NCBI GenBank assembly: GCA_001824295.1
Contig: MHWY01000002.1
Span: 73,354-137,353, forward strand
Length of the DNA: 64,000 bases
Reading direction: 5' to 3'
Origin: Candidatus Zambryskibacteria bacterium RIFOXYD1_FULL_40_13
GTDB taxonomy: Bacteria > Patescibacteriota > Minisyncoccia > Phycocordibacterales > DATDWN01
Shown: one piece after another, positions 3,078 to 61,162 of the stretch
Numbering within the stretch: the first letter of the stretch is position 1
How the letters are laid out: each line of letters begins with the position of its first letter
Made by a program: the position numbers and the translations under genes
Notes under the pieces: model-generated
Told to the model about the DNA's origin: nothing
The model's database searches: none
What the model saw: the letters and a program-made list of their open reading frames with translations, nothing else

Positions 3078-3251
3078 ATGATTTATAGACACGCATAAAC
3101 CCCTATTGGGGTTTTGCTATTCTCGTCGATCAAGAAAACAATCTTCCTCGACACTGGCACTCTCGCAAACTCGGCTTTGCCTCAAACAATGCTTCGTGCT
3201 GACGTGCCTCGTCGTTGTTTTCTAATTGACTGCGAAATGTCTATAAATCAT
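3078..3251. repeat. Conserved ~150-bp intergenic element, copy A
   Basis: It has 13-bp complementary arms: ATGATTTATAGAC at 3078-3090 and GTCTATAAATCAT at 3239-3251. The arms enclose the rpsI terminator and a ~125-bp core (ctattctcgtcgatcaagaaaacaat...cgtcgttgttttctaattgactgcgaaatg). The core is nearly identical to positions 7289-7446. Confidence 0.6.
3097..3115 (+). terminator. Intrinsic terminator of rpsI (aaaCCCCtattGGGGtttt)
   Basis: A perfect 4-bp GC stem is followed by a T-tract, 35 nt after the rpsI stop codon. Confidence 0.6.
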
Positions 3252-3279
3252 GGTGTGTCGAATTGATGAAATTAAATAA

Positions 3280-3334
3280 GGAAAAACCGCCAGTCGTGTG
3301 TGACTGGGGGATTTCCCCAGCGCCACGATGGCGG
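3280..3334 (-). terminator. GC-rich intrinsic terminator T1 (ccgccatcgtg...cacgactggcgg + TTTTTCC on the minus strand)
   Basis: A long GC-rich hairpin is followed by a T-tract on the minus strand. It lies directly downstream of the small minus-strand ORF ending at 3335. Both of its ends are shared with T2 at 3750-3804. Confidence 0.6.
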
Positions 3335-3496
3335 TTATATGTTGAGGCTCCCATTTGCCCGAAGGGCAGTCTGCGCCTCCTGTGTACTTCGAAGTGTTTT
3401 TTCCCACTCGTGGTATCTCTTGAGCTGTTTCTCGAGCCGTTTGACCTTTCTCTCGAGTTGCTCTCTCGTCAACCTCTTCTTTAGTACTATTGCCAT
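3335..3496 (-). CDS. Small Lys/Arg/Glu-rich coiled-coil protein, 53 aa (MAIVLKKRLTREQLERKVKRLEKQLKRYHEWEKTLRSTQEAQTALRANGSLNI). Not in the ORF track.
   Basis: The ATG at 3496 is preceded by GGGAGGAAGG. The terminator T1 follows. The ORF sits in a GC-rich island with a3/a2/a1 gene organisation. Confidence 0.45.
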   Translation of the reverse strand: MAIVLKKRLTREQLERKVKRLEKQLKRYHEWEKTLRSTQEAQTALRANGSLNI

Positions 3497-3509
3497 GCCT
3501 TCCTCCCGG

Positions 3510-3686
3510 TTATTCTGTTGGGTCGCTATCGTCGCTCATCCCAAAGATGAACGACCCACACGGGCACGTCGGCCATTCGGCCAAAGCCCCTTCGGGCTGT
3601 GTCTTTGGGAGCTGACTGTGTTCCTCCTCGCTGAACTTCTTGCCGCAGGTCATGCAGTGGTAGATGGTCTTGATTACCTTCGACAT
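3510..3686 (-). CDS. Small Cys-rich zinc-ribbon-like protein, 58 aa (MSKVIKTIYHCMTCGKKFSEEEHSQLPKTQPEGALAEWPTCPCGSFIFGMSDDSDPTE). Not in the ORF track.
   Basis: The ATG at 3686 is preceded by GGAGGG, 9 nt upstream. The protein contains CxxC...CPC. The codon usage is GC-rich. Confidence 0.5.
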   Translation of the reverse strand: MSKVIKTIYHCMTCGKKFSEEEHSQLPKTQPEGALAEWPTCPCGSFIFGMSDDSDPTE

Positions 3687-3749
3687 GGTCGGTACCCTCC
3701 ATTTATCAATTTACCACCATTTAATACTCTGTCAATCAGATTTTATATA

Positions 3750-3804
3750 GGAAAACCGCCAGTCGTGCTAGGCTGGCGGAATTCCGCACAGCGCCACGTT
3801 GGCG
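3750..3804 (-). terminator. GC-rich intrinsic terminator T2, paralogous to T1
   Basis: The hairpin ccgccaacgtggcg...ccagcctagcacgactggcgg is followed by TTTTCCTATAT on the minus strand. It lies 13 nt downstream of the ORF ending at 3817. Confidence 0.6.
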
Positions 3805-3816
3805 GTGTTGGTCTGA

Positions 3817-4062
3817 CTAGACCTTGAAGGTGAACCTATAGTTACCAAATCTCACGGACGACCATGCACCCTCACCCTCGAGGTACCGTCGCCTCACCTC
3901 TGCGATCACTCGCTCTGTCGGGAGCGTGTTGATGTTGACCATGTACTCTGTCTCTCCCGGTCGGAACAGGCTCTCGAGTTTACTGTCGATCTCCACCTCT
4001 AACGAGGTGGCAACCCGCATCTCTTCGTCGGTCAGCTTCAAATCTCTCGGCTTGAGCGCCAT
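3817..4062 (-). CDS. Hypothetical protein, 81 aa, GC-rich ORFan
   Basis: The ATG at 4062 is preceded by AAGGGGG. The GC content is elevated against an AT-rich backbone, and the terminator T2 lies downstream. Confidence 0.55.
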   Translation of the reverse strand: MALKPRDLKLTDEEMRVATSLEVEIDSKLESLFRPGETEYMVNINTLPTERVIAEVRRRYLEGEGAWSSVRFGNYRFTFKV

Positions 4063-4159
4063 ATGGCACCCCCTTTCTTCTTCCTAAGTAATAGCACATA
4101 CCTTTGTATCTGTCAACTATTTTTGAATACTTTAAATACTATGTTAAAATACACACAAC

Positions 4160-4771
4160 ATGACAGATGAAGATAAAAAAGATATTGAAAATAACGACAT
4201 TTTGGCGGAAGAGCCAGAAATAGACACCGACCCTGGAGACGATGTGGTGTTTGAGGATAACACAGAAGTTACAGGAGCTGATTATAAGATTAAAACGGAC
4301 AAACTTCGTACTAAAATAAAAGAATTGGAAAAGAAAAATGCTGAACTCCTAGATGGCTGGCAGAGGGACAAAGCTGAATTCGTTAATGCTAGAAAAAGGG
4401 ACGAAGAGCAGAAAATGGAGTTTTTGAAGTTTTCAAAGGCGGATATTATTGCTGAACTTCTCGCAGTTTTGGATTCTTTTGAATCTGCGTTTAAAAATAA
4501 GGAAGCCTGGGAAAAGGCAGACAAAAATTGGAGAATGGGTGTAGAATACATCCACACTCAACTCATGAACATAATGACTCAGAATGGTTTGAAGGTTGTA
4601 AACCCAGTGGGGGAGAATTATGACCACAATAGGGATGAGGCGGTAGAGACAGTAAAAGTTGACGACGAAAAAGATAATGATAAAATATTGGACGTAATAC
4701 GGGTAGGGTATGAGTTACATGGTAAAGAAATAAGGCCACCAAAGGTAAAAGTTGGACATTATGAAAAATAA
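4160..4771 (+). CDS. grpE: Nucleotide exchange factor GrpE
   Basis: The product has a GrpE-like coiled coil followed by a C-terminal beta domain. The gene lies upstream of dnaK. Confidence 0.93.
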   Translation: MTDEDKKDIENNDILAEEPEIDTDPGDDVVFEDNTEVTGADYKIKTDKLRTKIKELEKKNAELLDGWQRDKAEFVNARKRDEEQKMEFLKFSKADIIAELLAVLDSFESAFKNKEAWEKADKNWRMGVEYIHTQLMNIMTQNGLKVVNPVGENYDHNRDEAVETVKVDDEKDNDKILDVIRVGYELHGKEIRPPKVKVGHYEK

Positions 4772-5069
4772 TATTTTAATAACACAGCCGATTGGGAGTT
4801 TCGTACAAAGAATAATCCGAGACAAGAACGGGCAACTTGTTCGTGCTACTTTTTGTGTGTACGAATGTTCTGGGCACATCAAAGCTCGCCTTATAACTGC
4901 TGAACTTATTCAGGAGGTATTACCATATAAGAAAATCTTTGCTTTGGCTGGTTTCGTTCAGAAGGAATTCAGAAACTGGATTTTAAATGTGGGTAAAGTT
5001 GTCTCACCTTATTTTAGTTTAAACACATTATTCTTCTCAGGCTCTAAGCCAAGAGCACCAACTTTTTAA
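4752..5069 (+). CDS. Hypothetical protein, 105 aa
   Basis: The ORF uses AT-rich, backbone-like codons and lies between grpE and dnaK. No motif was recognised. Confidence 0.4.
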   Translation: MDIMKNNILITQPIGSFVQRIIRDKNGQLVRATFCVYECSGHIKARLITAELIQEVLPYKKIFALAGFVQKEFRNWILNVGKVVSPYFSLNTLFFSGSKPRAPTF

Positions 5070-5071
5070 TA

Positions 5072-5105
5072 AATGAGAACGCCGAGAACGATGGCGTTCT
5101 CGGCG
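5072..5105 (-). terminator. GC-rich intrinsic terminator (cgccgagaacg-ccat-cgttctcggcg + T-rich on the minus strand)
   Basis: A perfect 11-bp stem lies directly downstream of the minus-strand small ORF ending at 5109. Confidence 0.6.
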
Positions 5106-5108
5106 AGG

Positions 5109-5300
5109 TTACTTCTTCGTGACGGGGAACAGTCGAAGTGTCATGGAATCTTCGGGAGTTGCCGGCCAAGTGTTTGGACCGAGCATCAGCATACCGCCAG
5201 GCCCGCCGGCAACCCTCAACACTTTTGCGAGGATTCGGGCCTCTTCTGAGGTTTCTGTGATGAGCAGAACGTCATCTACGGTCTCTTCGATCAGCTTCAT
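5109..5300 (-). CDS. Small GC-rich ORFan, 63 aa (MKLIEETVDDVLLITETSEEARILAKVLRVAGGPGG...)
   Basis: The start is placed at ATG 5300, which has TAAGGAG 9 nt upstream. The ORF-track start at 5330 is probably too long. The GC content is elevated and the ORF has its own terminator. Confidence 0.55.
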   Translation of the reverse strand: MKLIEETVDDVLLITETSEEARILAKVLRVAGGPGGMLMLGPNTWPATPEDSMTLRLFPVTKK

Positions 5301-5369
5301 GTGCACACTCCTTACTAAACAATATAACATTATATAATAATTGTCAATTATAAATTTAAACTAAAAATT

Positions 5370-7483: not shown

Positions 7484-7533
7484 ACGCAAAAACCCACCAA
7501 CGAAAGTGGACTAGTGCGTCCAGTGTTGGTGGG
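7484..7533 (-). terminator. GC-rich intrinsic terminator (cccaccaac...gttggtggg + TTTTTGCGTAT on the minus strand)
   Basis: The hairpin is followed by a T-tract. A near-identical copy lies at 7756-7804. It sits downstream of the small ORF ending at 7543. Confidence 0.6.
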
Positions 7534-7542
7534 GGGTGGTTG

Positions 7543-7707
7543 TTAGAGTTTCTTCGCGAGACTCTTTTCGAGCCATGATAGTGTAAGGAACACTGTCCCC
7601 ATCACACCACCAAGACCAATGCTCTTGGCGAAGGTGACTCCGAAACCCATACTGATAACACAGACGAGAGCGCCGAGTACCAGGCTTGCGATAGCCGATC
7701 TCTTCAT
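7543..7707 (-). CDS. Small hydrophobic protein, 54 aa (MKRSAIASLVLGALVCVISMGFGVTFAKSIGLGGVMGTVFLTLSWLEKSLAKKL). It is in a different frame from track ORF 7511..7744.
   Basis: The ATG at 7707 is preceded by GGAGGAC. The product looks like a signal peptide or transmembrane segment, and a terminator follows. The track ORF reads through the terminator hairpin and is rejected. Confidence 0.5.
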   Translation of the reverse strand: MKRSAIASLVLGALVCVISMGFGVTFAKSIGLGGVMGTVFLTLSWLEKSLAKKL

Positions 7708-7755
7708 GCAGGTCCTCCAAAATAAATAATATATCAGGAATCACAAATAAACAAT

Positions 7756-7804
7756 ACGCAAAAACCCACCAACGAAAGTGGACTAGTGCGTCCGTGTTGG
7801 TGGG
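7756..7804 (-). terminator. GC-rich intrinsic terminator, paralogue of 7484-7533
   Basis: It shares the cccaccaac/gttggtggg stem. It lies 5 nt downstream of the ORF ending at 7809. Confidence 0.6.
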
Positions 7805-7808
7805 TAGA

Positions 7809-8024
7809 CTACTTCAGGCTAGTCATTTTCCGAAGACGGTTGATGACGGCCTTGCCGCAGTAATTATCAGGCTCTGTCCGGTACCACAGGTTCGTCGATA
7901 CCGTGGATTTCTTGAAGCCTCTTTTCCGTAGCTGGGTCTCCACTTCCTTACGTGTGGCTGGGCCAAAAGGCCCATCGTTTCCCCAAATTGTTCCCGTGTA
8001 GTTCACGACATACTTGGTCTCCAT
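7809..8024 (-). CDS. GC-rich ORFan, 71 aa
   Basis: The ATG at 8024 has AAGGAGG 5 nt upstream. A terminator follows. Confidence 0.55.
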   Translation of the reverse strand: METKYVVNYTGTIWGNDGPFGPATRKEVETQLRKRGFKKSTVSTNLWYRTEPDNYCGKAVINRLRKMTSLK

Positions 8025-8158
8025 CTGTGCCTCCTTAACTAATAATACACCAAATAGTTAAGATAGTCAAGTGCAATAATTATCAAAAAATAGTATTATA
8101 AATTCTGAATTATTTGTAGCCATTCGTTGATTCGTATAATTCGCATATTCGTATCTTT

Positions 8159-25384: not shown

Positions 25385-25440
25385 TTTTGTTTAAAACAGA
25401 AAAGTCCCAAGCGCAGAGGGCGCTTGAGGCCCTCCTGCTT
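25385..25440 (-). terminator. GC-rich intrinsic terminator after the ClpP-like gene
   Basis: The hairpin gcgccctctgcgc/agcaggagggcc is followed by CTTTTCTGTTTT on the minus strand. Confidence 0.45.
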
Positions 25441-25450
25441 GAGACTGCGT

Positions 25451-26017
25451 CTAAACTCGAGATGGATCACGAATGTCCTCTTCTTTCACGATGACTTGGT
25501 CAAGCAACCCAAGTGAGAGAGCATCACCCACGGGTAGCTGACAGTCAAGCTCGCACATTTTACGAATTTCTTCGTGCGATCTTCCTGTTCGGTTGACGAG
25601 AATTTCGTCGAGTTTTTTCTGGTCGGCCTCCATCGAATTGATGTAATCGGCAAGCATCATCGGATCTCTTGCCACATCAAGCCTGAACGCAGTACTTGTA
25701 ATGTGGTGGACCAGTATTCTGGAATGGGGCGTTGCTGTGCGCCAATCACAAGCCTGGAGAATCACTCCAGAGATTGAGTTTGCAATGCCATTCACAATAC
25801 CAATCTTATGTCCGACGTAGAACCTCAACAGATCGAAGATATCAAGTCCGGCAGTTACGTTACCGCCCTTACTTGTTATGTAGATCGTAATTGGCGGGGA
25901 GCCTCTTATGAGGAGGTTCCAAATCGCCGAGGATACGTACGCATGGGTTTCTGTCGTGACTTCTCCAGAGATGGACAATCGGTTCTGCGACAGAGCAATC
26001 GCTTGATCCTGTGTCAT
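25451..26017 (-). CDS. ClpP/S14-family serine peptidase (GC-rich, acquired-looking)
   Basis: The product contains ITSKGGNVTAGLDIFD (a ClpP signature), a candidate Ser (GIANSISG) and a candidate His (ILVHHI). It has an AGGAGG SD. The GC content is about 50% or more, against a backbone of about one-third. Confidence 0.75.
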   Translation of the reverse strand: MTQDQAIALSQNRLSISGEVTTETHAYVSSAIWNLLIRGSPPITIYITSKGGNVTAGLDIFDLLRFYVGHKIGIVNGIANSISGVILQACDWRTATPHSRILVHHITSTAFRLDVARDPMMLADYINSMEADQKKLDEILVNRTGRSHEEIRKMCELDCQLPVGDALSLGLLDQVIVKEEDIRDPSRV

Positions 26018-26099
26018 GGGGCCTGCCTCCTTGGGGGTGTACGGTCTAAGCTAACAATATGTGAGTTCAAAATTTTAGTCAAATATCGTGCATGTTTAG

Positions 26100-26134
26100 A
26101 CAAAAGAAATCCGCCACCCAAAGCTGGGTGGCGG
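26100..26134 (-). terminator. GC-rich intrinsic terminator after the ABC exporter (ccgccacccagctttgggtggcgg + TTTCTTTTG on the minus strand)
   Basis: A perfect hairpin plus T-tract lies directly downstream of the gene ending at 26148. Confidence 0.6.
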
Positions 26135-26147
26135 AAATTTACGCAAC

Positions 26148-28028
26148 TTACACAACAATTCCCTGGTCGTCAGCGAGCATCTTGAAAGTTCTGGAGATGC
26201 CGTAGAGTTCCTCAAACGACGAGGCTACTGCCTCAACCTGAGTGTCGCCATTTGTCAGCTCGTCGCTAGACCTGAGAACGACAAACTTGTCGCAGAGGTG
26301 CCTAACAGTAGAGAGCCGATGAGCAATGACCACCGCTGTGACATTCCCCGACAGAAGCTTCTGTAGCCCGGCCTGAACAAGCCTCTCGGTAGTTGAGTCC
26401 AAGCTTGATGTGGCTTCATCGATGAGCATCATTCGAGGACGCTTGATAGCGGCAGCTCCGATGATGAGCCTCTGTGCTTGCCCACCAGAGAGCTTGATTC
26501 CGTTTGTGCCAACTTCGGTATAGATGCCGTTCGTCAGACGCTTTCCGAAGTCAATCTGGAGGTCACGCATGAGGCTCCAGATTTCTGGGTCACCCATTTT
26601 CTGCTTTTCCTCATCACTGAGTGCATATGTCAGGTTGTAGCGGATACTTCCGTCGAAAATCTGAGCCTGCTGTGGAATGTATCCGAGAGTTCTAATCCAC
26701 GATGCGGAGTTGACCTGTCTCATGTCAATTCCGTTCACTAGGATTTTGCCGTTTGACGGATCCATCGAACGCAAGAGAAGTCGGGCCAAGGTTGACTTGC
26801 CTGCTCCTGACTGGCCGATGATTGCCACCTTCTGCCCAGCGTCTACCGCGAAGCTTACGCGCTGTAGTGCGTGTGGGTTTTCCTCTTCGTCTGTACTATC
26901 CAAGGTGGGGCCGTGTTCCGGGTATGTGTACGACACATCCTGGAACTCAATTGCTATCGGAGCATCCTGGAGGATTTCCACGCAACCCTCTGCATCCGTA
27001 GCTTCAGGTGGTATGGACAATGCCTCTATCTTGGCTTTGACGGCAGGCATGTTCCAGTTAATCATGTGTTCAATCCTGCCGATTTGCCACACACTTGATA
27101 CGATGGTACTTGTCCACATGAAGATAGGATACAAGTTGCCGATGTTCATGTGACCCTGCCACACCTGCCATGTGCCATAGCTAATGACAGTCATGAAGGC
27201 AAGCATGGTCGCAGTATCGCGAAAGGCGTTGTGCTTGATGAACCAGAGCCAGAACCTACGGTCATCCTTGAGGTTGTCGGCAAACTCGACCGACATCTCG
27301 CGAAGTTCCCTTGTGGACATGCCACTGGTCTTAACTCTCTCCACCTTGGACCATCGGTCAAGTCGCCTACGATTGAGAACACGGAAACGCTTGTCGATGT
27401 TTGTGCACTCCAAAACCACCTTGTGGTTAAGAAAGAGTGTCCATGTGATGTAAACCACGAACGAGAGACTGATTGCCAAACCAGAGACCGGTGAGACAAC
27501 CCAGATGAGAATGTAGGCAACCAGAAGAGTTGATAGAACCTGAAAACCTTCGAACAGGAGAAGCCCTTGAAGGTCTAGGAGTTTCCACCGACCCTTGTCA
27601 ATGTTGCCAACATTCAGAGTGCCACTGTGCTCAGCGTGTTGCCCCAAGGACTTCTCGAACATCATCCGTGTGATGTAGTCGTCGAGTGTACCCTGGAGAT
27701 AGCCAAGTATGAGCTCTCTGTAGGTGGCCTGCTTGAAGTGAAACAGTTTCTGGATTGCCATGAGCGCGAATGTCACGGCAATCCCTACCGCCACATACTC
27801 CCGACTTTTCTCCGCGAGACCGCGGAAAATTAGTGAGATTGTGAACGGGATTGTCATTTGAGTCAGGATGTTTGCGGACATGTAGCTAAACATTCTCCGC
27901 AACCATTTCACCTGCTCAGGCGATTCCAGAAACCTCCAAGTCCAAACAAGAACCCTTAGGGATTCCTTTGCACTTGAAAGGTATTCGGTAATCGTGGCCG
28001 GCGTTTTTTCTCTGTCATCGAAGTCCAT
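26148..28028 (-). CDS. ABC exporter with fused permease and ATPase (GC-rich island)
   Basis: The product has six N-terminal TM helices plus Walker A (GQSGAGKST), the ABC signature LSGGQAQR and Walker B (MMLIDEATS). The start was moved to ATG 28028 (MDFDD), which has AAGGAGG upstream. Confidence 0.85.
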   Translation of the reverse strand: MDFDDREKTPATITEYLSSAKESLRVLVWTWRFLESPEQVKWLRRMFSYMSANILTQMTIPFTISLIFRGLAEKSREYVAVGIAVTFALMAIQKLFHFKQATYRELILGYLQGTLDDYITRMMFEKSLGQHAEHSGTLNVGNIDKGRWKLLDLQGLLLFEGFQVLSTLLVAYILIWVVSPVSGLAISLSFVVYITWTLFLNHKVVLECTNIDKRFRVLNRRRLDRWSKVERVKTSGMSTRELREMSVEFADNLKDDRRFWLWFIKHNAFRDTATMLAFMTVISYGTWQVWQGHMNIGNLYPIFMWTSTIVSSVWQIGRIEHMINWNMPAVKAKIEALSIPPEATDAEGCVEILQDAPIAIEFQDVSYTYPEHGPTLDSTDEEENPHALQRVSFAVDAGQKVAIIGQSGAGKSTLARLLLRSMDPSNGKILVNGIDMRQVNSASWIRTLGYIPQQAQIFDGSIRYNLTYALSDEEKQKMGDPEIWSLMRDLQIDFGKRLTNGIYTEVGTNGIKLSGGQAQRLIIGAAAIKRPRMMLIDEATSSLDSTTERLVQAGLQKLLSGNVTAVVIAHRLSTVRHLCDKFVVLRSSDELTNGDTQVEAVASSFEELYGISRTFKMLADDQGIVV

Positions 28029-28116
28029 CTCACTCCTCCTTCTACACAAGCCCTAATTGTTGTTGAAGTTGTCAAAGAACTACTGTATCAGAGCAAAGCT
28101 CGATACACGGAAACTT

Positions 28117-31523: not shown

Positions 31524-31539
31524 AAAATAAAAGAAAAGT

Positions 31540-31585
31540 GACCCCTTTATCTTATCAAAGGGGCCACTTGGAGTCAAAGAAGATG
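31540..31585 (-). terminator. Intrinsic terminator after the P-loop / radical-SAM operon (CCCCTTTgataagatAAAGGGG + TCACTTTTCTTTTATTTT on the minus strand)
   Basis: A 7-bp stem is followed by a long T-tract. It lies between the end of the GC-rich island and the Nudix gene start. Confidence 0.55.
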
Positions 31586-31596
31586 CCACCAGTACA

Positions 31597-32124
31597 CTAG
31601 ATCCTACCTGACGACTTGAGATGATCCACTAGCGCGTCGGCCTCGAGTGCCCGGAGTGCCTCGCTGGCAACTCCGCTAAACGACCACTCAACCTGAGCGA
31701 GCAAGCATGTCTGGTGGCTGTGCCAGAAACGCTCACGCTTAATATCGAGCGCCATGTCCTCGGGGGTGCTTCGAGACAACCTGCATTTCTTGGGAACAAC
31801 GACACTCACCAACAAAGCCTCGGGCTCAATTTCAAGTACAGCCTTCCACTCATCAGGTGTGTGAATCGCGTCAAGCAGAACCACATCCTTTGAGTTTCGA
31901 TCGTACTTCATCAGCCTGAGAAGATGGTGCATGATTTCGTAACTCCCCATGTTGTGGTAGAGATCACGATACCATTCGGTGAACACTTCCTCGTTGTTGT
32001 CGATTGACGACCATTCGCGAAGAAGTTCTCTCTTCACAACATGTCGCCAACTGTAGTTATTAACAAAGAACTCCGAGAGATCACTCTTCCCAGAGCTGTG
32101 ATAACCAGCTATCCCGATGATCAT
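31597..32124 (-). CDS. P-loop NTPase/kinase-like protein (GC-rich island)
   Basis: The product has Walker A GIAGYHSSGKS at its N-terminus. It overlaps the upstream radical-SAM gene by 4 nt. Confidence 0.65.
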   Translation of the reverse strand: MIIGIAGYHSSGKSDLSEFFVNNYSWRHVVKRELLREWSSIDNNEEVFTEWYRDLYHNMGSYEIMHHLLRLMKYDRNSKDVVLLDAIHTPDEWKAVLEIEPEALLVSVVVPKKCRLSRSTPEDMALDIKRERFWHSHQTCLLAQVEWSFSGVASEALRALEADALVDHLKSSGRI

Positions 32125-33314
32125 TTTGACCTCATGAAATGGAGAGGTTGGACATCACTGCTCTTCAACGCCAGTGCGATCGCGAGACAGTTTGTCTTCG
32201 GTCCGGAAGTGGAAGAGTTGTAGCCGGGTAGCAGGAACCTCATGGACTCAATGTGTTGAGAGTCAACGAGTTTTCTCCAAACCCCAGAAAACCGCTCGTT
32301 CACGAGATTGCCGACCGACATTTCACCGAGCGGACCAAGAAAGCCACAGGTTTGCACATTGCCGTCTGGCAGAACCACCATTCCACGGTGACCTGCACTA
32401 CACGACTGACGTTCAAATGGAAGTGAAATCCGTGGTGCAACCTTGTCGTCCTTGATGTAGTGACCACGAACGTGCTTTGTCGAATCTGATGTCAAATGTC
32501 CGAGCCTCTTCCTCAGAACTTCATACTCTTCCTGAGAGAGCATTTCGCCTGACATGTTGTCTGCACGACCAGCAGGAATCAACCTGCGAATCATGACCGG
32601 CACGCTCAGATTTGAAAAAAACTCGGTAACGCGAACCACTTCATCAATGTTACTCTTCATGACGACAGTGTTCACCCTGACTGGGATACCGACATGTTTG
32701 AGCTCGATTATCCCCTTCATCGTTTTTCTGAAGGAACCAGCGCCTCTGATTGAGTCGTGAACACTCCTCATGCCATCAACACTAACGACGGCCAGGTTAA
32801 GACCAACATCTGCAAGTCTCCTTGCGATATCAGGCTTCACCAGTATGCCATTTGTGCCGATTGACGTTCGAAGACCATTGCGTCGCAGGAGCCTAATGAT
32901 GTCGTACACGACGTTGACCACGAGAGGTTCTCCGCCAGTGAGACGAACCTCTTGGACTCCAGAATTAATGAGATCTTGAACCAACCTAAGCCTTTGTGCG
33001 TCGGACATCTCGTTCGACATACGCCTACCTGAGTTGTTAAAGCAGAATGTGCAATTGATGTTGCACGCTCTGGTGATCTCAAAAAAAATGGTATCCGGTG
33101 CGCTGAAGTTGTTGCCCGGCAGGTAGGACGGCTCACGAATGAGCACGCTGTCCGTCGATAACTGAATCTCTCGCTGGAGATGTTCAGGTACACTACCGGA
33201 CTGAGAGATCGACTCGTACTCGTCTCTATTAATGTATGCGCGCTTGCCTGAGTCCGAATTAAACAGTGTACCACCAAAGACTTCTTTTCGAAGCAGTGCT
33301 TGTCCCTTAGTCAT
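32121..33314 (-). CDS. Radical SAM enzyme with a C-terminal SPASM-like Cys cluster and a ~90-aa N-terminal extension
   Basis: The product has CNINCTFC (CxxxCxxC) and a later Cys-rich segment (CSAGHRG...VQTCGF). The start was moved to ATG 33314 (MTKGQ), which has an AGGAGAG SD and lies downstream of a TTGACA-17-TATTAT promoter. Confidence 0.85.
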   Translation of the reverse strand: MTKGQALLRKEVFGGTLFNSDSGKRAYINRDEYESISQSGSVPEHLQREIQLSTDSVLIREPSYLPGNNFSAPDTIFFEITRACNINCTFCFNNSGRRMSNEMSDAQRLRLVQDLINSGVQEVRLTGGEPLVVNVVYDIIRLLRRNGLRTSIGTNGILVKPDIARRLADVGLNLAVVSVDGMRSVHDSIRGAGSFRKTMKGIIELKHVGIPVRVNTVVMKSNIDEVVRVTEFFSNLSVPVMIRRLIPAGRADNMSGEMLSQEEYEVLRKRLGHLTSDSTKHVRGHYIKDDKVAPRISLPFERQSCSAGHRGMVVLPDGNVQTCGFLGPLGEMSVGNLVNERFSGVWRKLVDSQHIESMRFLLPGYNSSTSGPKTNCLAIALALKSSDVQPLHFMRSK

Positions 33315-33386
33315 CTTTACTCTCCTCTGAATGTTAATGTGCGAACAACCACAAGAAAATCCTGTGGTTATTTGTTTTCTAGCCAA

Positions 33387-33415
33387 ATAATAGAACTAAT
33401 TTTAAGTAATGTCAA
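33387..33415 (-). promoter_or_regulatory. Sigma70-like promoter of the radical-SAM operon (TTGACA-17-TATTAT on the minus strand)
   Basis: The spacing and hexamers are near-consensus. A hairpin (ccacaggattttcttgtgg) and an SD follow before the ATG. Confidence 0.4.
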
Positions 33416-54888: not shown

Positions 54889-54923
54889 TAGAGAAACCCC
54901 GCACCAAGGCTTTTGGCACGGGG
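54889..54923 (-). terminator. GC-rich intrinsic terminator (ccccgugcc...ggugcgggg + TTTCTCTAT on the minus strand)
   Basis: A 9-bp stem with two G-U pairs lies downstream of the small ORF ending at 54947. Confidence 0.5.
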
Positions 54924-54946
54924 GTCCGTTAGTTACCGACTGATGC

Positions 54947-55159
54947 TCAGATCCTAGCGATCCTCGCATCGATGGCGTCAATCTTGTCCAAATAGTGGGC
55001 CCTGTAGAAACGAGCCATATCGACACCCTCTAGGTCGTCCTCCTTCCGAGCTTCCCTCTCAGCAATGCGCCAGTATACCGCATCTTCTCGGGCTAGCTGT
55101 CGACGCCAGCGGTACCATGCACGAAGAACACTTCTTTTGACCCAGGCAATGGTCCTCAT
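54947..55159 (-). CDS. GC-rich Arg/Trp-rich ORFan, 70 aa
   Basis: The ATG has AGGGAGGG 7 nt upstream. The GC content is elevated and the ORF has its own terminator. Confidence 0.5.
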   Translation of the reverse strand: MRTIAWVKRSVLRAWYRWRRQLAREDAVYWRIAEREARKEDDLEGVDMARFYRAHYLDKIDAIDARIARI

Positions 55160-55208
55160 CGGAAATCCCTCCCTATCAGTATTTAATACTAATTTTGGTA
55201 TTTGTCAA

Positions 55209-56797: not shown

Positions 56798-56874
56798 CAG
56801 GTCGACAAAACCACACTACACTGGGTAACCCTATGTAATGTGGTTTTTGTTGACAATAAGTGGATATCGAGCAT

Positions 56875-56903
56875 TGACAAATGCGTATTTAACATAGTAT
56901 AAT
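56875..56903 (+). promoter_or_regulatory. Consensus sigma70 promoter TTGACA-17-TATAAT
   Basis: The -35 hexamer TTGACA lies at 56875-56880, the spacer is 17 nt, and the -10 hexamer TATAAT lies at 56898-56903. The promoter is about 24 nt upstream of the SD and ATG of the small ORF at 56927. Confidence 0.5.
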
Positions 56904-56926
56904 ACTGACAGAGAAAGGGGCACCCC

Positions 56927-57181
56927 ATGATACCGAGAAGGATTATGGAGCGGATGATTGAGAAGGCTCGAGTCCGCTACGCAAAGGAAATGGCGGCCTA
57001 CAAAGGCGGGCTAGTGAGAAAGCCACCAAGCTTCCAGAGCATTAAGTTCGCGATCCTCCTTGAGGAGGGATACGACCTCATGGAGTCACCCAATGCCATG
57101 GCAGAGCTCACTTCTGCCTACAATCGGGAACGGGAACGAAGAAAGGCTCTGTGGAGAGAAAGAATCTCCAGGGGTGCCTAG
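56927..57181 (+). CDS. GC-rich ORFan, 84 aa
   Basis: It has a consensus promoter, an AAAGGGG SD and a downstream hairpin terminator. The GC content is elevated. Confidence 0.55.
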   Translation: MIPRRIMERMIEKARVRYAKEMAAYKGGLVRKPPSFQSIKFAILLEEGYDLMESPNAMAELTSAYNRERERRKALWRERISRGA

Positions 57182-57189
57182 CACACCAC

Positions 57190-57217
57190 AAGGGGCGACC
57201 ATCGCAGGTCGCCCTTA
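57190..57217 (+). terminator. Hairpin aaggggcgacc-atcgca-ggtcgccctt
   Basis: The stem is near-perfect and lies directly after the ORF. The T-tract is weak. Confidence 0.45.
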
Positions 57218-57232: not shown

Positions 57233-57300
57233 CCCGGTAGTAGATTTTGCCATTGCTCTTTCAGAGCGGGCAAAGCCCAATGTCAAAATTCACTACCGGG
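57233..57300. repeat. Palindromic element copy 3 (CCCGGTAGTAGATTTTGCCATTG ... CAATGTCAAAATTCACTACCGGG)
   Basis: The 23-bp inverted repeat has a 22-bp spacer with nested hairpins (gctctttcagagc; gggcaaagccc). The right arm overlaps the last codons and supplies the TAG stop of the 916-aa gene. Confidence 0.6.
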
Positions 57301-60043
57301 TTTTATACTTACTTAAAATATTTTCTTCTATCTCCTTCCTGTCCCCACCATAAGTCAAATACGAAAGCTGTCTTAGAGAGTCCATTATTTCTGGATTGCC
57401 CTTTGGGGGAAAACCCTCTTTAAAGTTAAAGGCCTTTGTTGTCTTTCCACCGACAAGCATTTTTATATAGGCACTAAGGTTATCTATATTCATAATATCT
57501 TTTGCTGTAAATACTGGACTGAATTGTTTTTCTAGGAATTCTGCATCTTCTGCTCCAACCCGGAAGGAAACGATAGAGCCCACATTTCCAAAAACAGCAT
57601 CACGAATATCTTCTTGTAGTTGAGCGATAAACTGGTGGGCAATATTTAGTGACAACTTATATTTTCTAGCTTCAGAAAGAATAGTTGAGATTGAGTCTGT
57701 GGTAATGTTCTGAAACTCATCGATGTATAGATAAAATGGTGGAAAATCCTTGCCGAGCGAATCAACGCGAGAAAGAGCGGCCATCAAAATCTTACCCACA
57801 AGAATAAGTCCAATAAGGTTTGCATTTATATCGCCAAGTCTTCCTTTCGATAGGTTTACAAGTAAAATCTTTTTGTTATCCATTATCTCTCGGAAATCAA
57901 ATGATGATTTTTCTTGAGCAATAATCGGACGCATAATATCATTTGCAAGAAAGACATCAAACTTACTTGTGATATAGGGAACAATGTTTGCAAGTGACGC
58001 TTCCCCACCAGCCTTTTCTGCCACCTCTGTCCAAAACTGAACCACCACAGGATTCTTGCATCGAGAAATTTTCAAATCGCGGAAGGCTTTGTTCGTCATA
58101 ACTCTAGAAACATCAAGCAGTGTACAACCACTATCTGGGTCTTCTATGACAAGCATCGTAGCGTTTCTGAAATACTGTTCAAACATAGGACCAAGGGACT
58201 CGGGTACTCCACCATACAACTTTTGGAAGATACTAAACAACTCGTTAACAACAAAGGTCTTCTGTTCTGGGTGTGACCTATCGTATTCAAGCATATTGAG
58301 GGCCATTGGTCTCTCTGTGTGGCTTGGGTCAAAATATATGACATCGTGAAAGCGTTCTTGTGGAATGTTAGCGAGTATATCCTGAACATCACTGCCGTGC
58401 GGGTCAATAAAACAACATCCCTTTCCTGCATTAATATCTTGGATAATCATATTTTTTAGGAATACGGTTTTTCCGGTTCCTGTCTGCCCTATAACATAAA
58501 CATGCCTTAGTCTGTCATCGTCACGCATGTATATCGGTGTTTCAATATTACGATAACTGTTTGTGCCCAGAAATGTACCTTCTGTGCCCATCTCGGCAGG
58601 AGGTGGGGCAAATATGGCCTGGGTTTGTTTAAGCTGTGGAGTTGCATCAAGAGCTGAATTCTGGAAATGAATGACTGATGATATCTCGTGAAGATTGAGT
58701 GGCAGAAGCTGTGTCTCATCATAACTTCTGAAAGAGAAAGCCCTAAACATTTTTTGCAATGCAGTTTTATCAAGTCTCTTTGGTTTAAGTCCATTTGCAG
58801 ATGGGTCTGTAAACTGGTTGAAACTTGATTCCAGTCCACGCAGAATCCTCTCTGCATCTAACCTACTCTGGGCAGAAGCTATAAGACGAATGTTTGTGGC
58901 AACAATAGTACTTGCCATTTTCTGTTTTATTTTCTGTATTGCCTCTGTGTCTATTGGCTTTTTCTCCTCACCTTCCTTTGGGGGCGCTTTAAACAAAGAA
59001 AAAACAGTCTTTTTGAATTCGCCCGTTATTGTTTCTGGTAAATCTACGGCTTCTTTCAATGGCACACCTTTCTCTATCTGATCTATGGCATATTTGTATT
59101 TCTTATGGAAATAGTCCTCTTTTGGAGCAAAAACAATTTGAATCCCAGCCCCCTCTCCATTTTTCTGAATCTTTGAAAAACTATTTAGAATAATGTTGAG
59201 TGGGTCGTGGTCAAAGCTCTCATATGTTTTGAATGGATAAATCGGGTTATTGGTTGACTCCAGGTATGACCCTAGCGAGATACCGTCTTGATTGAATATG
59301 TTGTAATCAGATGTTGCCTCGGTCAGCTTGGCATTACTGAAAACAGCCACGATCTGCTTTTCAAACAAGGCCTTGTAGGCATTTGGAACAGAAACATAGA
59401 AAACAAACTGGTCACTGCCATTTGCGTTGGCAATTTCTAAAACGATATAATTCTTCTTGTAGTTCTTTGTATCATCCTTGGAAATAACAGAGAGCATTCC
59501 AGACAGAAACTGCTCCATGCTGGAAATAAGTTCTTTCAGAGGTTTGCTCTTTTCCTTTCCATCCAAATCAAGGTCCTCCGGCAAGACAACTTCATAAAGT
59601 GTCATTCCGAGTCCACGAAACTCTTCATCTGATATGTTGAGACCCTTCGCATCATAACCATGCTTCAAATACTGAGTAAGGAAACGATGGAAATCATCTT
59701 CTAGATGTGGGTCTTTGAATCCAGCTAAAACTGACATAGTATTTTTTATGCCATTTTCGCTTAGGATGCTCAATAATTCTTCTATTTTCTTGTCATGGGT
59801 TTCTGGCTCAAGATTCAAAACAATTGATTCCATATTGGCCTTGGCCATAGCATAAGTATCATCTAAAACTTGGGTTGGTAAAATGTTTTTATAGCGTTCA
59901 ATTTCCCCCTTAACAACATCATCAATTTTGTAATCTGCCTTAGTCGTGCGAAGTTCAAGTTCCTTATTTGAAATCTGCTCACGCAAGAAAGCTATTTCTT
60001 CCTCTGGACTAGTAAAGTTAAGACCTTCAAGATTTTTCTCCAT
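57293..60043 (-). CDS. Large soluble P-loop ATPase. The C-terminal ~400 aa are VirD4/TrwB/TraD (type IV coupling protein)-like; the N-terminal ~500 aa are unknown.
   Basis: The product has Walker A VIGQTGTGKT and IDPHG...YFDPS (cf. TrwB VDPNGD). LYIDEF...KYKLSLNIAHQF...QLQ matches the TrwB Walker B/arginine-finger region. No N-terminal TM helices are evident. Confidence 0.7.
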   Translation of the reverse strand: MEKNLEGLNFTSPEEEIAFLREQISNKELELRTTKADYKIDDVVKGEIERYKNILPTQVLDDTYAMAKANMESIVLNLEPETHDKKIEELLSILSENGIKNTMSVLAGFKDPHLEDDFHRFLTQYLKHGYDAKGLNISDEEFRGLGMTLYEVVLPEDLDLDGKEKSKPLKELISSMEQFLSGMLSVISKDDTKNYKKNYIVLEIANANGSDQFVFYVSVPNAYKALFEKQIVAVFSNAKLTEATSDYNIFNQDGISLGSYLESTNNPIYPFKTYESFDHDPLNIILNSFSKIQKNGEGAGIQIVFAPKEDYFHKKYKYAIDQIEKGVPLKEAVDLPETITGEFKKTVFSLFKAPPKEGEEKKPIDTEAIQKIKQKMASTIVATNIRLIASAQSRLDAERILRGLESSFNQFTDPSANGLKPKRLDKTALQKMFRAFSFRSYDETQLLPLNLHEISSVIHFQNSALDATPQLKQTQAIFAPPPAEMGTEGTFLGTNSYRNIETPIYMRDDDRLRHVYVIGQTGTGKTVFLKNMIIQDINAGKGCCFIDPHGSDVQDILANIPQERFHDVIYFDPSHTERPMALNMLEYDRSHPEQKTFVVNELFSIFQKLYGGVPESLGPMFEQYFRNATMLVIEDPDSGCTLLDVSRVMTNKAFRDLKISRCKNPVVVQFWTEVAEKAGGEASLANIVPYITSKFDVFLANDIMRPIIAQEKSSFDFREIMDNKKILLVNLSKGRLGDINANLIGLILVGKILMAALSRVDSLGKDFPPFYLYIDEFQNITTDSISTILSEARKYKLSLNIAHQFIAQLQEDIRDAVFGNVGSIVSFRVGAEDAEFLEKQFSPVFTAKDIMNIDNLSAYIKMLVGGKTTKAFNFKEGFPPKGNPEIMDSLRQLSYLTYGGDRKEIEENILSKYKTR

Positions 60044-60066
60044 GAATTTATTATATATTATGAAAA

Positions 60067-60420
60067 CTAACCGACAAAATGATTATAAAAAACCAGAACG
60101 CCAACAGCGAAGGCGCCAAGACAGACTATCAAGACAAACCCAGCCATCGTATCCTTTATTTTAGCTATGATTGAATCGTGCTTTGGCTCAACTTTATTGC
60201 ACAAGTCCTCAATAGCAGTATTGACTATTTCTGCAGTAAGAACCATTACAATTGCAAGTACAGAAAAAGTGGTTTCAATAAATGTGAAGTCAAAAAAAAT
60301 GATACAAAACAGCACAACAGCGCCAGCTAGGATTTCTAGTCTAAAGTTATGCTCTTCCCGCCATGTGGTTTTGAGGCCATTTAGGGCAAATAAAAATGAG
60401 TGATATATTTTAGTTATCAT
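60067..60420 (-). CDS. dgkA: Diacylglycerol kinase family protein (DgkA-like)
   Basis: The 117-aa product has three TM helices and the E...NTAIE...D motifs. Confidence 0.8.
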   Translation of the reverse strand: MITKIYHSFLFALNGLKTTWREEHNFRLEILAGAVVLFCIIFFDFTFIETTFSVLAIVMVLTAEIVNTAIEDLCNKVEPKHDSIIAKIKDTMAGFVLIVCLGAFAVGVLVFYNHFVG

Positions 60421-60424
60421 GCGT

Positions 60425-60495
60425 TTATTATATCAAAAAAGCCTCCAACCGGAAACCGATTGGGGGCGTGGCTTCGTGAGATAACGCCAGCTGGT
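60425..60495 (-). terminator. GC-rich double-hairpin terminator (ggcttcgtg...acgaagcc; ccaatcgg...ggttgg + CTTTTTTG on the minus strand)
   Basis: It lies downstream of the GC-rich Nudix-like ORF. It is followed by a TATAAT-like box and the dgkA start. Confidence 0.5.
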
Positions 60496-60496
60496 G

Positions 60497-61009
60497 CTAA
60501 CCCACGAAGCCTAGTTTCTTAAAGTGTTCATATCCCTCTACAAACGCGCACCGATGCGACCTGTAGAGGTTTGCTACATCATGGAGGTCTTTCACCTCTT
60601 CCCACCTCGGCGGGTAGAGCTTTTGGTCGCCGTCGATTTTGTACTTGCCTCGACGCAGGTTACCTGTGCAGTCACCGAACTTCACTGCATAGAAGTACCT
60701 CTGAATACGACCTAGCCTCGCACGAGAGTAGCACACGAGGTCTACTTTCACACTGGGTCCAACGATAAGCCCAGTCTCCTCCCGAATCTCTCGACGAAAG
60801 GTGGTAACTGGATCTTCATCTTCGGGCTTGGGTGGGAGATTTCTCGTCCCGCCTGGATACATCGGGCGGATTGTCTGGGAATACTTTGGATCCAAGGACT
60901 CTGAATCCTGTATTAGCTGATACAGCTTATACAGGCCAGTAGTCTCATCCAACTTGTAATCCCAGATAATCCCAAAGGATGCCCACTTTTCTGGCTCTTT
61001 CCTGCGCAC
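60497..61009 (-). CDS. GC-rich NUDIX-fold protein, ~170 aa (GTG start with AAGGAGG SD)
   Basis: The product has the Nudix-box-like PEDEDPVTTFRREIREETGL (E-x7-REIREETG). The GTG at 61009 has AAGGAGG 4 nt upstream. The track ORF start at 61084 lies in an AT-rich promoter-like sequence. Confidence 0.5.
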   Translation of the reverse strand: MRRKEPEKWASFGIIWDYKLDETTGLYKLYQLIQDSESLDPKYSQTIRPMYPGGTRNLPPKPEDEDPVTTFRREIREETGLIVGPSVKVDLVCYSRARLGRIQRYFYAVKFGDCTGNLRRGKYKIDGDQKLYPPRWEEVKDLHDVANLYRSHRCAFVEGYEHFKKLGFVG

Positions 61010-61162
61010 TTGGCCTCCTTGGTCTATTCTGGGACACCCCAGATTCCCACATATAAGGATACAATACTTATAATATAAAGTCAATAAGGTAGTTAAATTT
61101 GCTAATTTAGGCGAAATTGCTTTGATTTATATGTGTAAAATGTTATAGTTTTTTAGTTCAGT

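Follow-up and report, generated by a model that had tools for sequence, protein, structure and literature searches.

Does a GC-rich gene in an AT-rich genome have to be a recent arrival? The question is raised by a stretch of 64,000 nucleotides from Candidatus Zambryskibacteria bacterium RIFOXYD1_FULL_40_13 (hereafter the window, meaning the whole stretch at its full length), an ultra-small bacterium of the Candidate Phyla Radiation (CPR), in which short GC-rich cassettes, called islands below, lie scattered among AT-rich housekeeping genes. Atypical GC content and expression signals are usually read as recent transfer, and a first-pass annotation had proposed that the islands were acquired horizontally from a higher-GC donor that uses Shine-Dalgarno (SD) sequences, a host bacterium or a phage. 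For these islands that inference fails. Comparison with relatives points, with a probability that we put at about 0.55, to a second class of genes that Paceibacteria-type CPR bacteria have carried for long and throughout the lineage, and not to recent foreign DNA. Base composition, transcriptional autonomy and initiation signal are coupled, in a conserved manner, in a subset of CPR genes.

The window has a GC content of 38.3%, and about one fifth of its genes lie in GC-rich cassettes. The backbone comprises rpsD-rpoA-rplQ-rplM-rpsI, grpE-dnaK-dnaJ, trpS, dnaB, recR, rplU, rmuC and genes for cell wall and division. DnaK is 92-94% identical to its counterparts in Patescibacteria/Paceibacteria metagenome-assembled genomes (MAGs); the relatives next in line carry the labels Zambryskibacteria, Parcubacteria and Minisyncoccia. 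A near-identical organism has been assembled from many samples with constant gene order. Its I1a gene (island 1) is listed in 74 index blocks, and the context of I1a was constant in all 24 contigs that were read. Every island examined was present in these near-identical strains, including the I1a locus in the 24 contigs; the sole variant contig had one single-nucleotide difference in 20 kb, and the available strains are clonal. The relatives compared were 80 dnaK loci and 80 rmuC loci from related genomes and metagenomes (labelled L001 etc.), and the gene set consisted of 57 backbone genes and 13 island open reading frames (ORFs), with refined starts.

The islands had been singled out as GC-richer than the backbone by eye, and measurement bore this out. 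Profiles over 100 and 300 nt showed plateaus of about 50% GC at 3260-4110, 5070-5330, 7480-8050, 25380-28060, 31535-33310, 54890-55200, 56880-57300 and 60410-61010. Gene GC averaged 0.366 in the backbone (n = 57, range 28-43%, maximum 0.432) and 0.517 in the islands (13 ORFs in eight islands, range 48-55%, minimum 0.481), so that the two ranges did not overlap (Mann-Whitney p = 2e-8). GC content at codon positions 1/2/3 was 0.47/0.33/0.32 in the backbone versus 0.54/0.41/0.59 in the islands, and the R/(R+K) ratio of the encoded proteins was 0.30 versus 0.59. Relative to the backbone, codon usage in the islands flips from AAA to AAG, from GAA to GAG and from ATT/ATA to ATC; CTC is preferred, ATA is avoided and TTA is nearly gone. 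As a separate observation, a gene for tRNA-Glu(CUC), which decodes GAG, lies in the window at 61164-61236; GAG is the preferred Glu codon of the islands (58%) and the minority one of the backbone (38%).

The islands and their parts are the following.

3280..4116, minus strand: island 1, with promoter TTGACA-17-TATTAC (4088-4116) and the ORFs I1a, I1b and I1c.
3817-4062, minus strand: I1a, 81 amino acids (aa), then hairpin T1a at 3750-3806.
3708-3735, minus strand: second promoter of island 1, TTGACA-16-TAAATT.
3510-3686, minus strand: I1b, 58 aa, zinc-ribbon-like (CxxC...CxC).
3335-3496, minus strand: I1c, 53 aa, coiled-coil-like, then hairpin T1c at 3280-3336.
5071..5347, minus strand: island 2, with promoter TTGACA-17-TATTGT (5319-5347), SD AAGGAG, the 63-aa I2 (5109-5300) and hairpin T2 (5071-5105).
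7485..8070, minus strand: island 3, with promoter TTGACT-17-TATTAT (8042-8070).
7809-8024, minus strand: I3a, 71 aa, SD AAGGAGG, then hairpin T3 at 7757-7804.
7543-7707, minus strand: I3b, a 54-aa peptide with two transmembrane segments, SD GGAGG, then a near-identical T3-type hairpin at 7485-7533.
25393..28075, minus strand: island 4, an ABC exporter plus a ClpP-like peptidase, with hairpin T4 at 25393-25445 and then a leaderless-type trpS promoter.
26148-28028, minus strand: ABC exporter, 626 aa, SD AAGGAGG (Pfam ABC_tran, ABC_membrane).
25451-26017, minus strand: ClpP-like peptidase, 188 aa, SD AAGGAGG (Pfam CLP_protease; ClpP matches in the PDB).
31524..33415, minus strand: island 5, with promoter TTGACA-17-TATTAT (33387-33415), a 73-nt leader and hairpin T5 at 31524-31567.
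32121-33314, minus strand: radical S-adenosylmethionine (radical-SAM)/SPASM enzyme, called rSAM below, 397 aa, SD GAGGAG.
31597-32124, minus strand: P-loop (AAA_18-like, Pfam) protein, 175 aa, SD GAGG.
54890..55208, minus strand: island 6, with promoter TTGACA (55181-55208), SD GGGAGGG and hairpin T6 (54890-54923).
54947-55159, minus strand: I6, 70 aa, Arg-rich and helical.
56874..57214, plus strand: island 7, with promoter TTGACA-18-TATAAT (56874-56903), SD AAAGGGG, the 84-aa I7 (56927-57181) and hairpin T7 (57192-57214).
60435..61084, minus strand: island 8, with promoter TTGACT-17-TATCCT (61056-61084), SD AAGGAGG and hairpin T8 (60435-60467).
60497-61009, minus strand: I8, 170 aa, containing a Nudix box, GTG start (Pfam NUDIX E = 0.0013, under the Pfam cut-off).
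61164-61236, plus strand: tRNA-Glu(CUC) (ARAGORN, Rfam).
61237-61345, plus strand: GC-rich structured 3' trailer of tRNA-Glu ('island 9'), which folds with z = -3.4.

The islands measure 0.3-2.7 kb. Seven of the eight coding ones are on the minus strand, where eight of nine had been counted before, and only islands 1-3 are antisense to neighbouring genes. The ninth island of the first-pass annotation (61235-61345) proved to be the tRNA-Glu trailer, a 27-nt hairpin of which is found 96% identical beside the same tRNA in L094; it is therefore not an island of the same kind. Likewise the nine small orphan proteins are reduced to eight small ORFs, among which I1a and I7 are indeed without any real homolog in collections of 5.8 billion clusters and 1.84 billion representatives.

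Initiation signals separate the two gene sets as well. With the SD motif defined as GGAG, GAGG or AGGA at -18 to -4, it was present upstream of none of the 57 backbone genes, as had been claimed for the flanking housekeeping genes, and upstream of 11 of the 13 island ORFs (Fisher p = 4e-11). The two ORFs outside this strict definition, I1a and I7, have AGGGGG or AAAGGGG instead. The number of island ORFs is 13, not the 14 counted earlier. The start was moved downstream of the longest-ORF start for four island ORFs (I2, 5300; ABC exporter, 28028; rSAM, 33314; the Nudix-like I8, GTG at 61009). The purine-rich, GGAGG-type motif 5-10 nt upstream of island start codons is also kept in their orthologs. 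Conversely, a TATAAT box (at least 5 matches out of 6) ending 4-14 nt before the ATG was found for 20 of the 57 backbone genes (35%) and for none of the 13 island ORFs, against 6.6% of internal ATG controls. Such boxes in 35% of a backbone that has no SD indicate widespread leaderless or SD-independent initiation, which fits backbone mRNAs that are in many cases leaderless or near-leaderless.

Autonomous transcription of the islands had been proposed, with consensus promoters for two of them, and the anatomy predicted from the sequence, promoter, SD, ORF and terminator, agrees with this on a broader basis. A -35 box TTGACA or TTGACT with a -10 box 16-18 nt downstream precedes I1a, I1b, I2, I3a, I6, I7, I8 and rSAM. 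The promoter of I7 matches the consensus at 12 of 12 positions, and that of rSAM is TTGACA-17-TATTAT. From promoter to start codon the distance is 17-23 nt, and 73 nt for rSAM.

At the other end, a GC-rich hairpin closes each island, usually followed by a run of T. The earlier description of these as perfect-stem terminators stands for their presence at every island and not for their shape: T1 and T3 are branched, two-level hairpins, and the T7 stem has no T-run directly after it, TTAAACACC coming next. The hairpins are 90-96% conserved where the proteins before them are 30-70% identical or unrelated (T4, 96% over 57 nt when the window is compared with L168/169; T5, 90% over 39 nt in L083; T2, 93% over 29 nt in L072). 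The T1 module AACCGCCAtCGTGGCG...CGGCGGTTTTCC recurs in the rpsI-grpE gap of L001, L002 and L012, behind unrelated ORFs, the one in L002 being an unrelated membrane protein. In these three loci the two-level structure of T1 (AACCGCCAtCG ... CGAtCGGCGGTT) is retained, the sequence of the inner hairpin changing while its pairing is kept. T1 is present twice in the window (74% identical), as is T3 (100% over 41 nt); the T1 motif is not dispersed and occurs at the orthologous site only. Such conservation is what one would see if the 3' ends of the transcripts were strongly constrained, be it for termination, for insulation or for stability, and the hairpins could also act as recombination joints. 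The stretch made up of T4 and of the trpS promoter and start region (25368-25445) is 96% identical to L168/L169, the flanking proteins being 54% and 80% identical; this constrained non-coding stretch may be more than a terminator.

How far do these properties extend beyond one genome? Backbone synteny is kept across the 80 dnaK and 80 rmuC loci. The slots of islands 1, 2, 3, 6 and 7 range in relatives from 17-84 nt, which is effectively empty, to more than 2 kb, and where filled they contain different small ORFs, again GC-rich and equally oriented, whose ATG follows a GGAGG at a distance of 5-9 nt. The RmuC-rplU slot of island 6 varies from 28-84 nt, empty, up to 2.3 kb, and in L087 and L092 it contains different small ORFs that are GC-rich and SD-led; the TraG-YqeY slot of island 7, empty in L096 (17 nt), has different SD-led small ORFs in L087, L088 and L090. 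Among the 1,550 ORFs of 68 AT-rich loci, the first start was preceded by an SD in 31-33% of those at least 7 points above locus GC versus about 4% of those of backbone composition, and ORFs led by GGAGG and ATG were 2-20 times commoner than ORFs behind control pentamers. GC-rich, SD-led cassettes are a property of the lineage, not a peculiarity of one genome.

For several islands the relatives carry recognisable orthologs. I1a has an ortholog (33% identical) in the rpsI-grpE gap of L013, where it heads an array of SD-led ORFs of 83, 66, 53 and 59 aa that parallels the order I1a-I1b-I1c. In L002, L072 and L022 the island 2 slot, upstream of dnaK, is occupied by SD-led ORFs that have in common with I2 the core h-x-h-x-x-T-[ED]-E-[ED]-x-x-x-L-x-x-L. 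Members of the I3a family occupy the dnaK-dnaJ gap of L012 (two copies), L021 and L002 (z = 5.8-7.4 against shuffles). I1a, I2 and I3a thus have orthologs in their own slots at 20-33% identity, and the small islands are at least partly ancestral.

Island 5 is the most informative case. About 80 strong homologs of rSAM were found, at 40-67% identity; all named homologs of rSAM, and likewise of the ClpP-like peptidase, are from Patescibacteria, with the single exception of one MAG labelled Parachlamydiales, and the closest rSAM homolog sits in the closest relative MAG. The gene belongs to a conserved cluster with the P-loop gene, a NUDIX gene (31107-31526), a methyltransferase gene (MT, 30443-31117) and p251 (29688-30443). 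The rSAM gene, the 170-179-aa P-loop protein and NUDIX are clustered in six genomes (window, L083/84, L085, L086, L174 and L175), most of which also have MT, convergent, and the protein of about 250 aa. In these six genomes, whose GC contents span 0.38-0.51, rSAM and the P-loop gene have a GC of 0.45-0.54, whereas NUDIX, MT and p251 are at or under the genome average (0.29-0.45) and have no SD. Five of the six P-loop genes are led by a GGAGG-type SD; among the rSAM genes, those of the window and L083/84 are. Amino-acid identities between the window and L083 are 68% for rSAM, 70% for the P-loop protein, 67% for NUDIX, 74% for MT and 58% for p251; this similarity across the five genes indicates that the cluster has co-diverged.

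At fourfold degenerate sites of conserved rSAM residues, the two sequences are 32% identical, versus 25% expected by chance from composition. Nevertheless the GC at these sites (GC4) is near-uniform in both lineages, at about 0.46-0.53, versus about 0.15-0.2 in the neighbouring genes. If the composition were decaying neutrally at the rate that this saturation implies, back-extrapolation would, in our calculation, give a GC4 above 1 at the split. Saturated fourfold sites together with a persisting GC content indicate a composition at equilibrium, and not an import that has yet to ameliorate. The GC of about 50% and the SD, kept in orthologs whose synonymous sites are saturated, are held there by some force.

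In the island 4 region, L168/L169 have the order small ORF, ABC exporter, ClpP-like, trpS, and the ABC (GC 0.46) and ClpP-like (0.50) genes are SD-led (GGAGG), whereas trpS (0.38) has no SD. Identities to the window are 54% for the ClpP-like peptidase, 29% for the ABC protein (nucleotide-binding domain only), 80% for TrpRS and 76% for the adjacent methyltransferase, so that the GC-rich genes diverge faster than their neighbours. Islands 1, 2, 3, 4 and 5, and 'island 9', are hence all found at the same loci in relatives, an outcome that the first-pass annotation had itself taken to mean ancestral rather than acquired sequence. Inheritance of the cassettes and their slots is vertical; cassettes have been gained and lost along the way, and their proteins have diverged very fast.

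The favoured explanation, a long-resident second gene class, would work as follows. Each cassette has its own predicted sigma-70-type promoter, a leader of 17-73 nt with a canonical SD, an ORF rich in GC and, at the 3' end, a conserved hairpin that is GC-rich as well, and it occupies a fixed intergenic slot among backbone genes that are AT-rich, SD-less and often leaderless. The force that maintains the GC content may be selection on the transcript: GC-rich, structured, hairpin-capped mRNAs would be stable and yet barred from AU-rich or leaderless initiation, and their dependence on SD pairing would put them under a separate translational regime. Folding energies of the islands are much lower than those of the backbone, and their coding regions also fold somewhat better than dinucleotide shuffles (mean z, -1.8 in the islands and -0.6 in the backbone; p = 0.04). 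The small ORFs, eight in number, encode accessory proteins that evolve fast and whose role may lie in interactions with hosts, competitors or phages.

Several observations weigh against this explanation. The island mRNAs are only modestly more structured than expected (p = 0.04), and those of I1a, I2 and I6 not at all, with z near 0 or above. Avoidance of SD-like motifs inside backbone genes is weak (observed/expected 0.89 for AGGAGG, z = -2.3; 0.96 for GGAGG versus 1.04-1.31 for the other permutations), a result that mildly favours a functional anti-SD. The CCTCCT anti-SD has been detected in just 48% of Parcubacteria 16S genes, and bS21 is often lost (PMC9297842); no 16S gene was found in the window, in the related loci scanned or within 10 kb of the window ends. 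I6, I7 and I8 had no detectable ortholog in the 80 syntenic loci, and slots are empty in some relatives, so that turnover by gain and loss is real. The ABC proteins encoded in the island 4 slot are alike in the nucleotide-binding domain only; these genes are probably non-orthologous, pointing to replacement and not to divergence in place. Finally, relatives below 34% GC have SD-led ORFs that are not GC-rich, and the contrast in L175 is weak. Over all GGAGG-led ORFs, GC followed that of the backbone with a slope of 0.85 and with little contrast below 34% or above 47% GC, a relation confounded by false positives; taken by itself, the rSAM family favours a GC that stays roughly constant, near 0.5, irrespective of host GC.

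Some of these points are the strength of the alternative that survives best, although we consider it doubtful: a pool of mobile cassettes within the CPR, moron-like portable units that swap in the same slots by recombination in the conserved flanks or in the 3' hairpins. Their GC of about 50% would then be that of a pool shared among hosts of many GC contents, and never equilibrating. Slot contents that differ among close relatives, some slots being empty, are what such exchange would produce, as are a non-orthologous ABC gene in the island 4 slot of L168, an rSAM and P-loop GC near 0.5 whatever the host, and the self-sufficiency of the units, which makes them portable. Hairpins conserved behind unrelated ORFs (T1, L002) and duplicated within islands also behave as recombination joints would. 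However, the rSAM cluster co-diverges with its AT-rich neighbours and has its closest homolog in the closest relative, and the orthologs of I1a, I2 and I3a, in their own slots at 20-33% identity, fit divergence in place. No integrase, transposase or repeat-bounded insertion was seen at any island, T1 is restricted to its orthologous site, no near-identical cassette was found in a second context, and the small proteins are orphans.

A second possibility, which we regard as improbable, shares with the favoured explanation the notion of two translation regimes on one chromosome, housekeeping mRNAs being leaderless or SD-independent and cassettes SD-dependent, and adds that, if the 16S RNA lacks an anti-SD, the cassettes could be read only by specialised ribosomes or by those of the host cell that the symbiont attaches to. 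If this were true, the cassettes would be kept in the symbiont and yet built for expression elsewhere, like T-DNA genes.

GC-biased gene conversion is a poorer candidate still. The slots would be recombination hotspots in which biased repair raises local GC, and the SD would be secondary to structured 5' regions. A rise in GC that affects every codon position and amino-acid usage too, the variable slots with their fast-diverging genes, and the identical terminator copies of island 3, which suggest conversion, would all be expected. Reported effects of such conversion in bacteria amount to a few percent of GC3; the shift observed here is from 0.32 to 0.59, and the island boundaries match transcription units exactly, not recombination tracts.

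Recent transfer from a higher-GC, SD-using host bacterium or phage, with composition not yet ameliorated, is what the islands were first thought to record, and we now hold it to be very unlikely. Their GC, GC3, amino-acid and codon usage form a classic foreign signature, the small ORFs are orphans, and a TraG/VirD4-like coupling protein is encoded nearby. Against this stand the same-locus orthologs of relatives, with the same GC and SD state and saturated synonymous sites, which already contradict it for islands 1-5, the CPR origin of all but one of the named rSAM and ClpP-like homologs, the location of islands in conserved functional clusters with AT-rich partners, and the presence of the islands examined in all near-identical strains.

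Homology searches gave recent transfer no support either. In PHROGs, the island proteins had only weak zinc-ribbon and weak Nudix matches. PADLOC returned nothing for the small ORFs and, for rSAM, a match to pVip over the generic core only; three scans of IMG/VR gave nothing except one 41-residue match of I8 in a viral contig. I1a matched only itself in an index of 5.8 billion clusters, and I7, searched exhaustively with HMMER against 1.84 billion representatives, matched only itself and a spurious insect-allergen repeat protein. Searches of Pfam, PHROGs and PADLOC yielded no family, fold or function for the eight small proteins, a profile of the I3a family had no match in the PDB or Pfam, and single-sequence structure predictions for I1a and I3a reached a pLDDT of about 48. 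In Rfam, only the tRNA passed gathering thresholds, and nothing was found at E <= 1 over 3000-8200. The 64 kb contained no integrase or transposase domain, and no direct repeats flank the islands. With no phage or defence matches beyond generic similarity, no integrase and no flanking repeats, the data lend no support to recent transfer, be the donor a host or a phage; a phage origin was rejected on the negative PHROGs and IMG/VR results and on the nature of the flanks (rpsI, grpE, dnaK, dnaJ, trpS, rplU, rmuC). Horizontal acquisition is largely refuted. There may have been an ancient transfer into a common ancestor, which would leave the lack of amelioration in composition unexplained.

If the window has a conventional, recently acquired island, an AT-rich block at its end makes a better candidate than the GC-rich ones do.

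61545-64000, continuing past the window end (L167 10001-12624): Gabija anti-phage system, directly after tRNA-Glu(CUC) (PADLOC).

GajA gave a full-length PADLOC match (2e-115) and GajB one of 5e-54; the GC content of the locus, about 28%, is well under that of the backbone.

Least credible is the idea that the small islands are structured non-coding RNAs with incidental ORFs, since, even if GC-rich intergenic regions of AT-rich genomes are a known hunting ground for such RNAs, the small ORFs lack homologs and I7 and I8 fold better than shuffles (z = -2.6 and -4.5), each ORF fills the space from SD to hairpin with correct SD spacing, the SD-ATG layout recurs in relatives, GC3 exceeds GC1 and GC2, I1a, I2 and I3a are conserved at the protein level, I1a, I2 and I6 have z near 0 or above, and Rfam gave nothing at E <= 1 over 3000-8200.

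What might the cassettes encode? A coherent set of small effector or peptide genes had been suggested, and for islands 4 and 5 this part of the suggestion holds up: they look coherent and peptide-related, with a SkfB-like rSAM/SPASM enzyme, an ABC exporter, a ClpP-like peptidase and a 43-aa ORF. The rSAM protein matches Pfam Radical_SAM (4e-29), Fer4_12 (8e-9) and SPASM (1.5e-4; 22.4 bits, cut-off 21.5), and its closest solved structure is the sactipeptide maturase SkfB (4.6e-24), followed by BlsE, PqqE and MoaA. An assignment as prokaryotic viperin (pVip) was rejected: the PADLOC match (E = 6e-23) covers only model positions ~2-200, the rSAM core, viperins in the PDB score 1e-7 to 1e-5, and the SPASM domain is not known from viperins. 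Two further features lie next to the exporter gene.

28165-28296, minus strand: unannotated 43-aa ORF, AT-rich and SD-less, MKNLRNQ...LRCVLSV (MKNLRNQKNIWNTCRKGLVSFIVLPNKYNSANNVERLRCVLSV), just upstream of the ABC gene.
28112-28141, minus strand: hairpin AAAACGCCGCGTACTGCGGCGTTTT, between the 43-aa ORF and the ABC gene, identical in L168.

The product of this ORF, which has two Cys and lies 4 kb from rSAM, is 42% identical to that of a 55-aa ORF at the same position in L168, the N-terminus and the C-terminal LRCVLS being conserved. It is a candidate precursor peptide, and the hairpin a candidate attenuator or terminator. Three methyltransferase genes and those for the NUDIX hydrolase, the P-loop protein and the 251-aa protein lie between the 43-aa ORF/ABC/ClpP-like group and rSAM. 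We read the region from 25.4 to 33.4 kb as one putative peptide modification and export region that mixes GC-rich, SD-led genes with genes of the backbone class. The most likely function of islands 4 and 5, taken with the 43-aa ORF and the methyltransferase and NUDIX genes beside them, is the synthesis, processing and export of a modified peptide, in which the SkfB-like rSAM/SPASM protein would be the maturase, assisted by a kinase-like P-loop protein, a ClpP-like peptidase and the ABC exporter.

The region resembles clusters for sactipeptides or ranthipeptides, which are ribosomally synthesized and post-translationally modified peptides (RiPPs), in combining within 8 kb a SkfB-like rSAM/SPASM enzyme, an ABC exporter, a peptidase and a conserved ORF of 43-55 aa. 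It differs from them in that the peptidase is ClpP-like, not C39 or S8, the precursor-like ORF has only two Cys, and three methyltransferases, a NUDIX hydrolase and a 251-aa protein separate maturase and exporter. No RiPP recognition element was identified.

Some other features of the window touch the islands or their flanks. At least two full copies of an element of about 200 nt are present, at 3060-3270 and 7262-7475 on the minus strand; they are 80% identical and differ by an indel of 10 nt, and a third, partial copy lies outside the window (L081, ~19949). The two copies lie directly downstream of island 1 or 3, just past the stop of rpsI or dnaK, and both form the same long branched hairpin (z = -7.9 and -8.2), with no Rfam match. 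Their closing stems of 19-25 bp differ and yet pair in both copies, and an inner hairpin covaries (CCCC/GGGG versus TCGT/ACGA). The element is a candidate for a novel structured RNA or a hairpin DNA element.

A palindromic element, CCCGGTAGTAGAnnnTGnCAT ... ATGnCAnnnTCACTACCGGG, occurs in the window at 1823-1947, 48173-48240 and 57233-57300, and also in L169 (1372-1496), L004, L005, L070, L129, L083 and L001. In L169 it lies exactly between the trpS promoter and the trpS ATG, a site that is empty in the window; the window's copy at rplQ has its end precisely at the ATG, where its 3' arm, ATG TCA TTT TTC ACT ACC GGG, is in frame and adds MSFFTTG. In sequence it looks like a mobile hairpin similar to miniature inverted-repeat transposable elements that would target the start codons of leaderless genes. 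The palindromic element and island 7 lie on the flanks of a gene for a 916-aa TraG/VirD4-type coupling-protein homolog (57293-60043, minus strand; T4SS-DNA_transf, TraG-D_C, DUF8128), which is of backbone composition and keeps its synteny in relatives. Elsewhere, the cumulative GC skew reaches its maximum at about 10.8 kb, where gene orientation flips convergently from plus to minus, as at a terminus; this region (about 9300-10900) holds only short ORFs of unknown function (9289-9771 and 10102-10545).

Where do the islands stand among known systems? Morons are autonomous promoter-gene-terminator units between conserved genes of lambdoid phages. The cassettes share with them an own promoter and terminator between conserved genes, a deviant composition, small accessory products and a content that varies among relatives. 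Unlike morons, they are part of a cellular chromosome, where their slots are conserved from genus to genus; five or more of them have come down vertically and are saturated at synonymous sites. Their deviant composition is upheld and does not mark a recent arrival, and their mode of initiation differs from that of the backbone. With acquired genomic islands or islets they have in common atypical GC, GC3, codon and amino-acid usage, and one of them lies beside a tRNA gene; they differ in having no integrase, no flanking repeats, sizes of 0.3-2.7 kb, same-locus orthologs, CPR homologs and no amelioration. Like integron cassettes, they are small, mostly orphan ORFs, each with an imperfect 3' hairpin that is more conserved than the ORF and is duplicated within arrays. 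Integron-like attC sites were nevertheless rejected: the hairpins lack R''/R' cores (RYYYAAC...GTTRRRY) and are followed by T-runs, T1 is found at the orthologous site only, and the cassettes have no integrase, possess their own promoters and are scattered, not arrayed.

In Bacteroidota the anti-SD is sequestered and translation is SD-independent, with an SD-led rpsU. The window resembles these bacteria, and the Parcubacteria reported to have no anti-SD (PMC9297842), in its SD-free backbone and its few genes with a strong SD, which implies that these genes initiate by a route of their own. In contrast to both, its SD-led set is also compositionally distinct, self-transcribed and largely accessory or orphan.

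The translation apparatus of CPR bacteria is already known as unusual, since uL1 and bS21 are missing and the anti-SD is absent in some lineages; a durable, gene-class-specific constraint on composition and initiation would add to this in a major group of uncultivated bacteria. In practice, gene callers trained on an SD-less backbone will mis-start or miss island ORFs, and composition-based screens for horizontal transfer will over-call it in CPR genomes. The cassettes also mark out a defined group of small orphan proteins that evolve fast, together with a RiPP-like system; both are prime candidates for factors of symbiont-host or symbiont-phage interaction.

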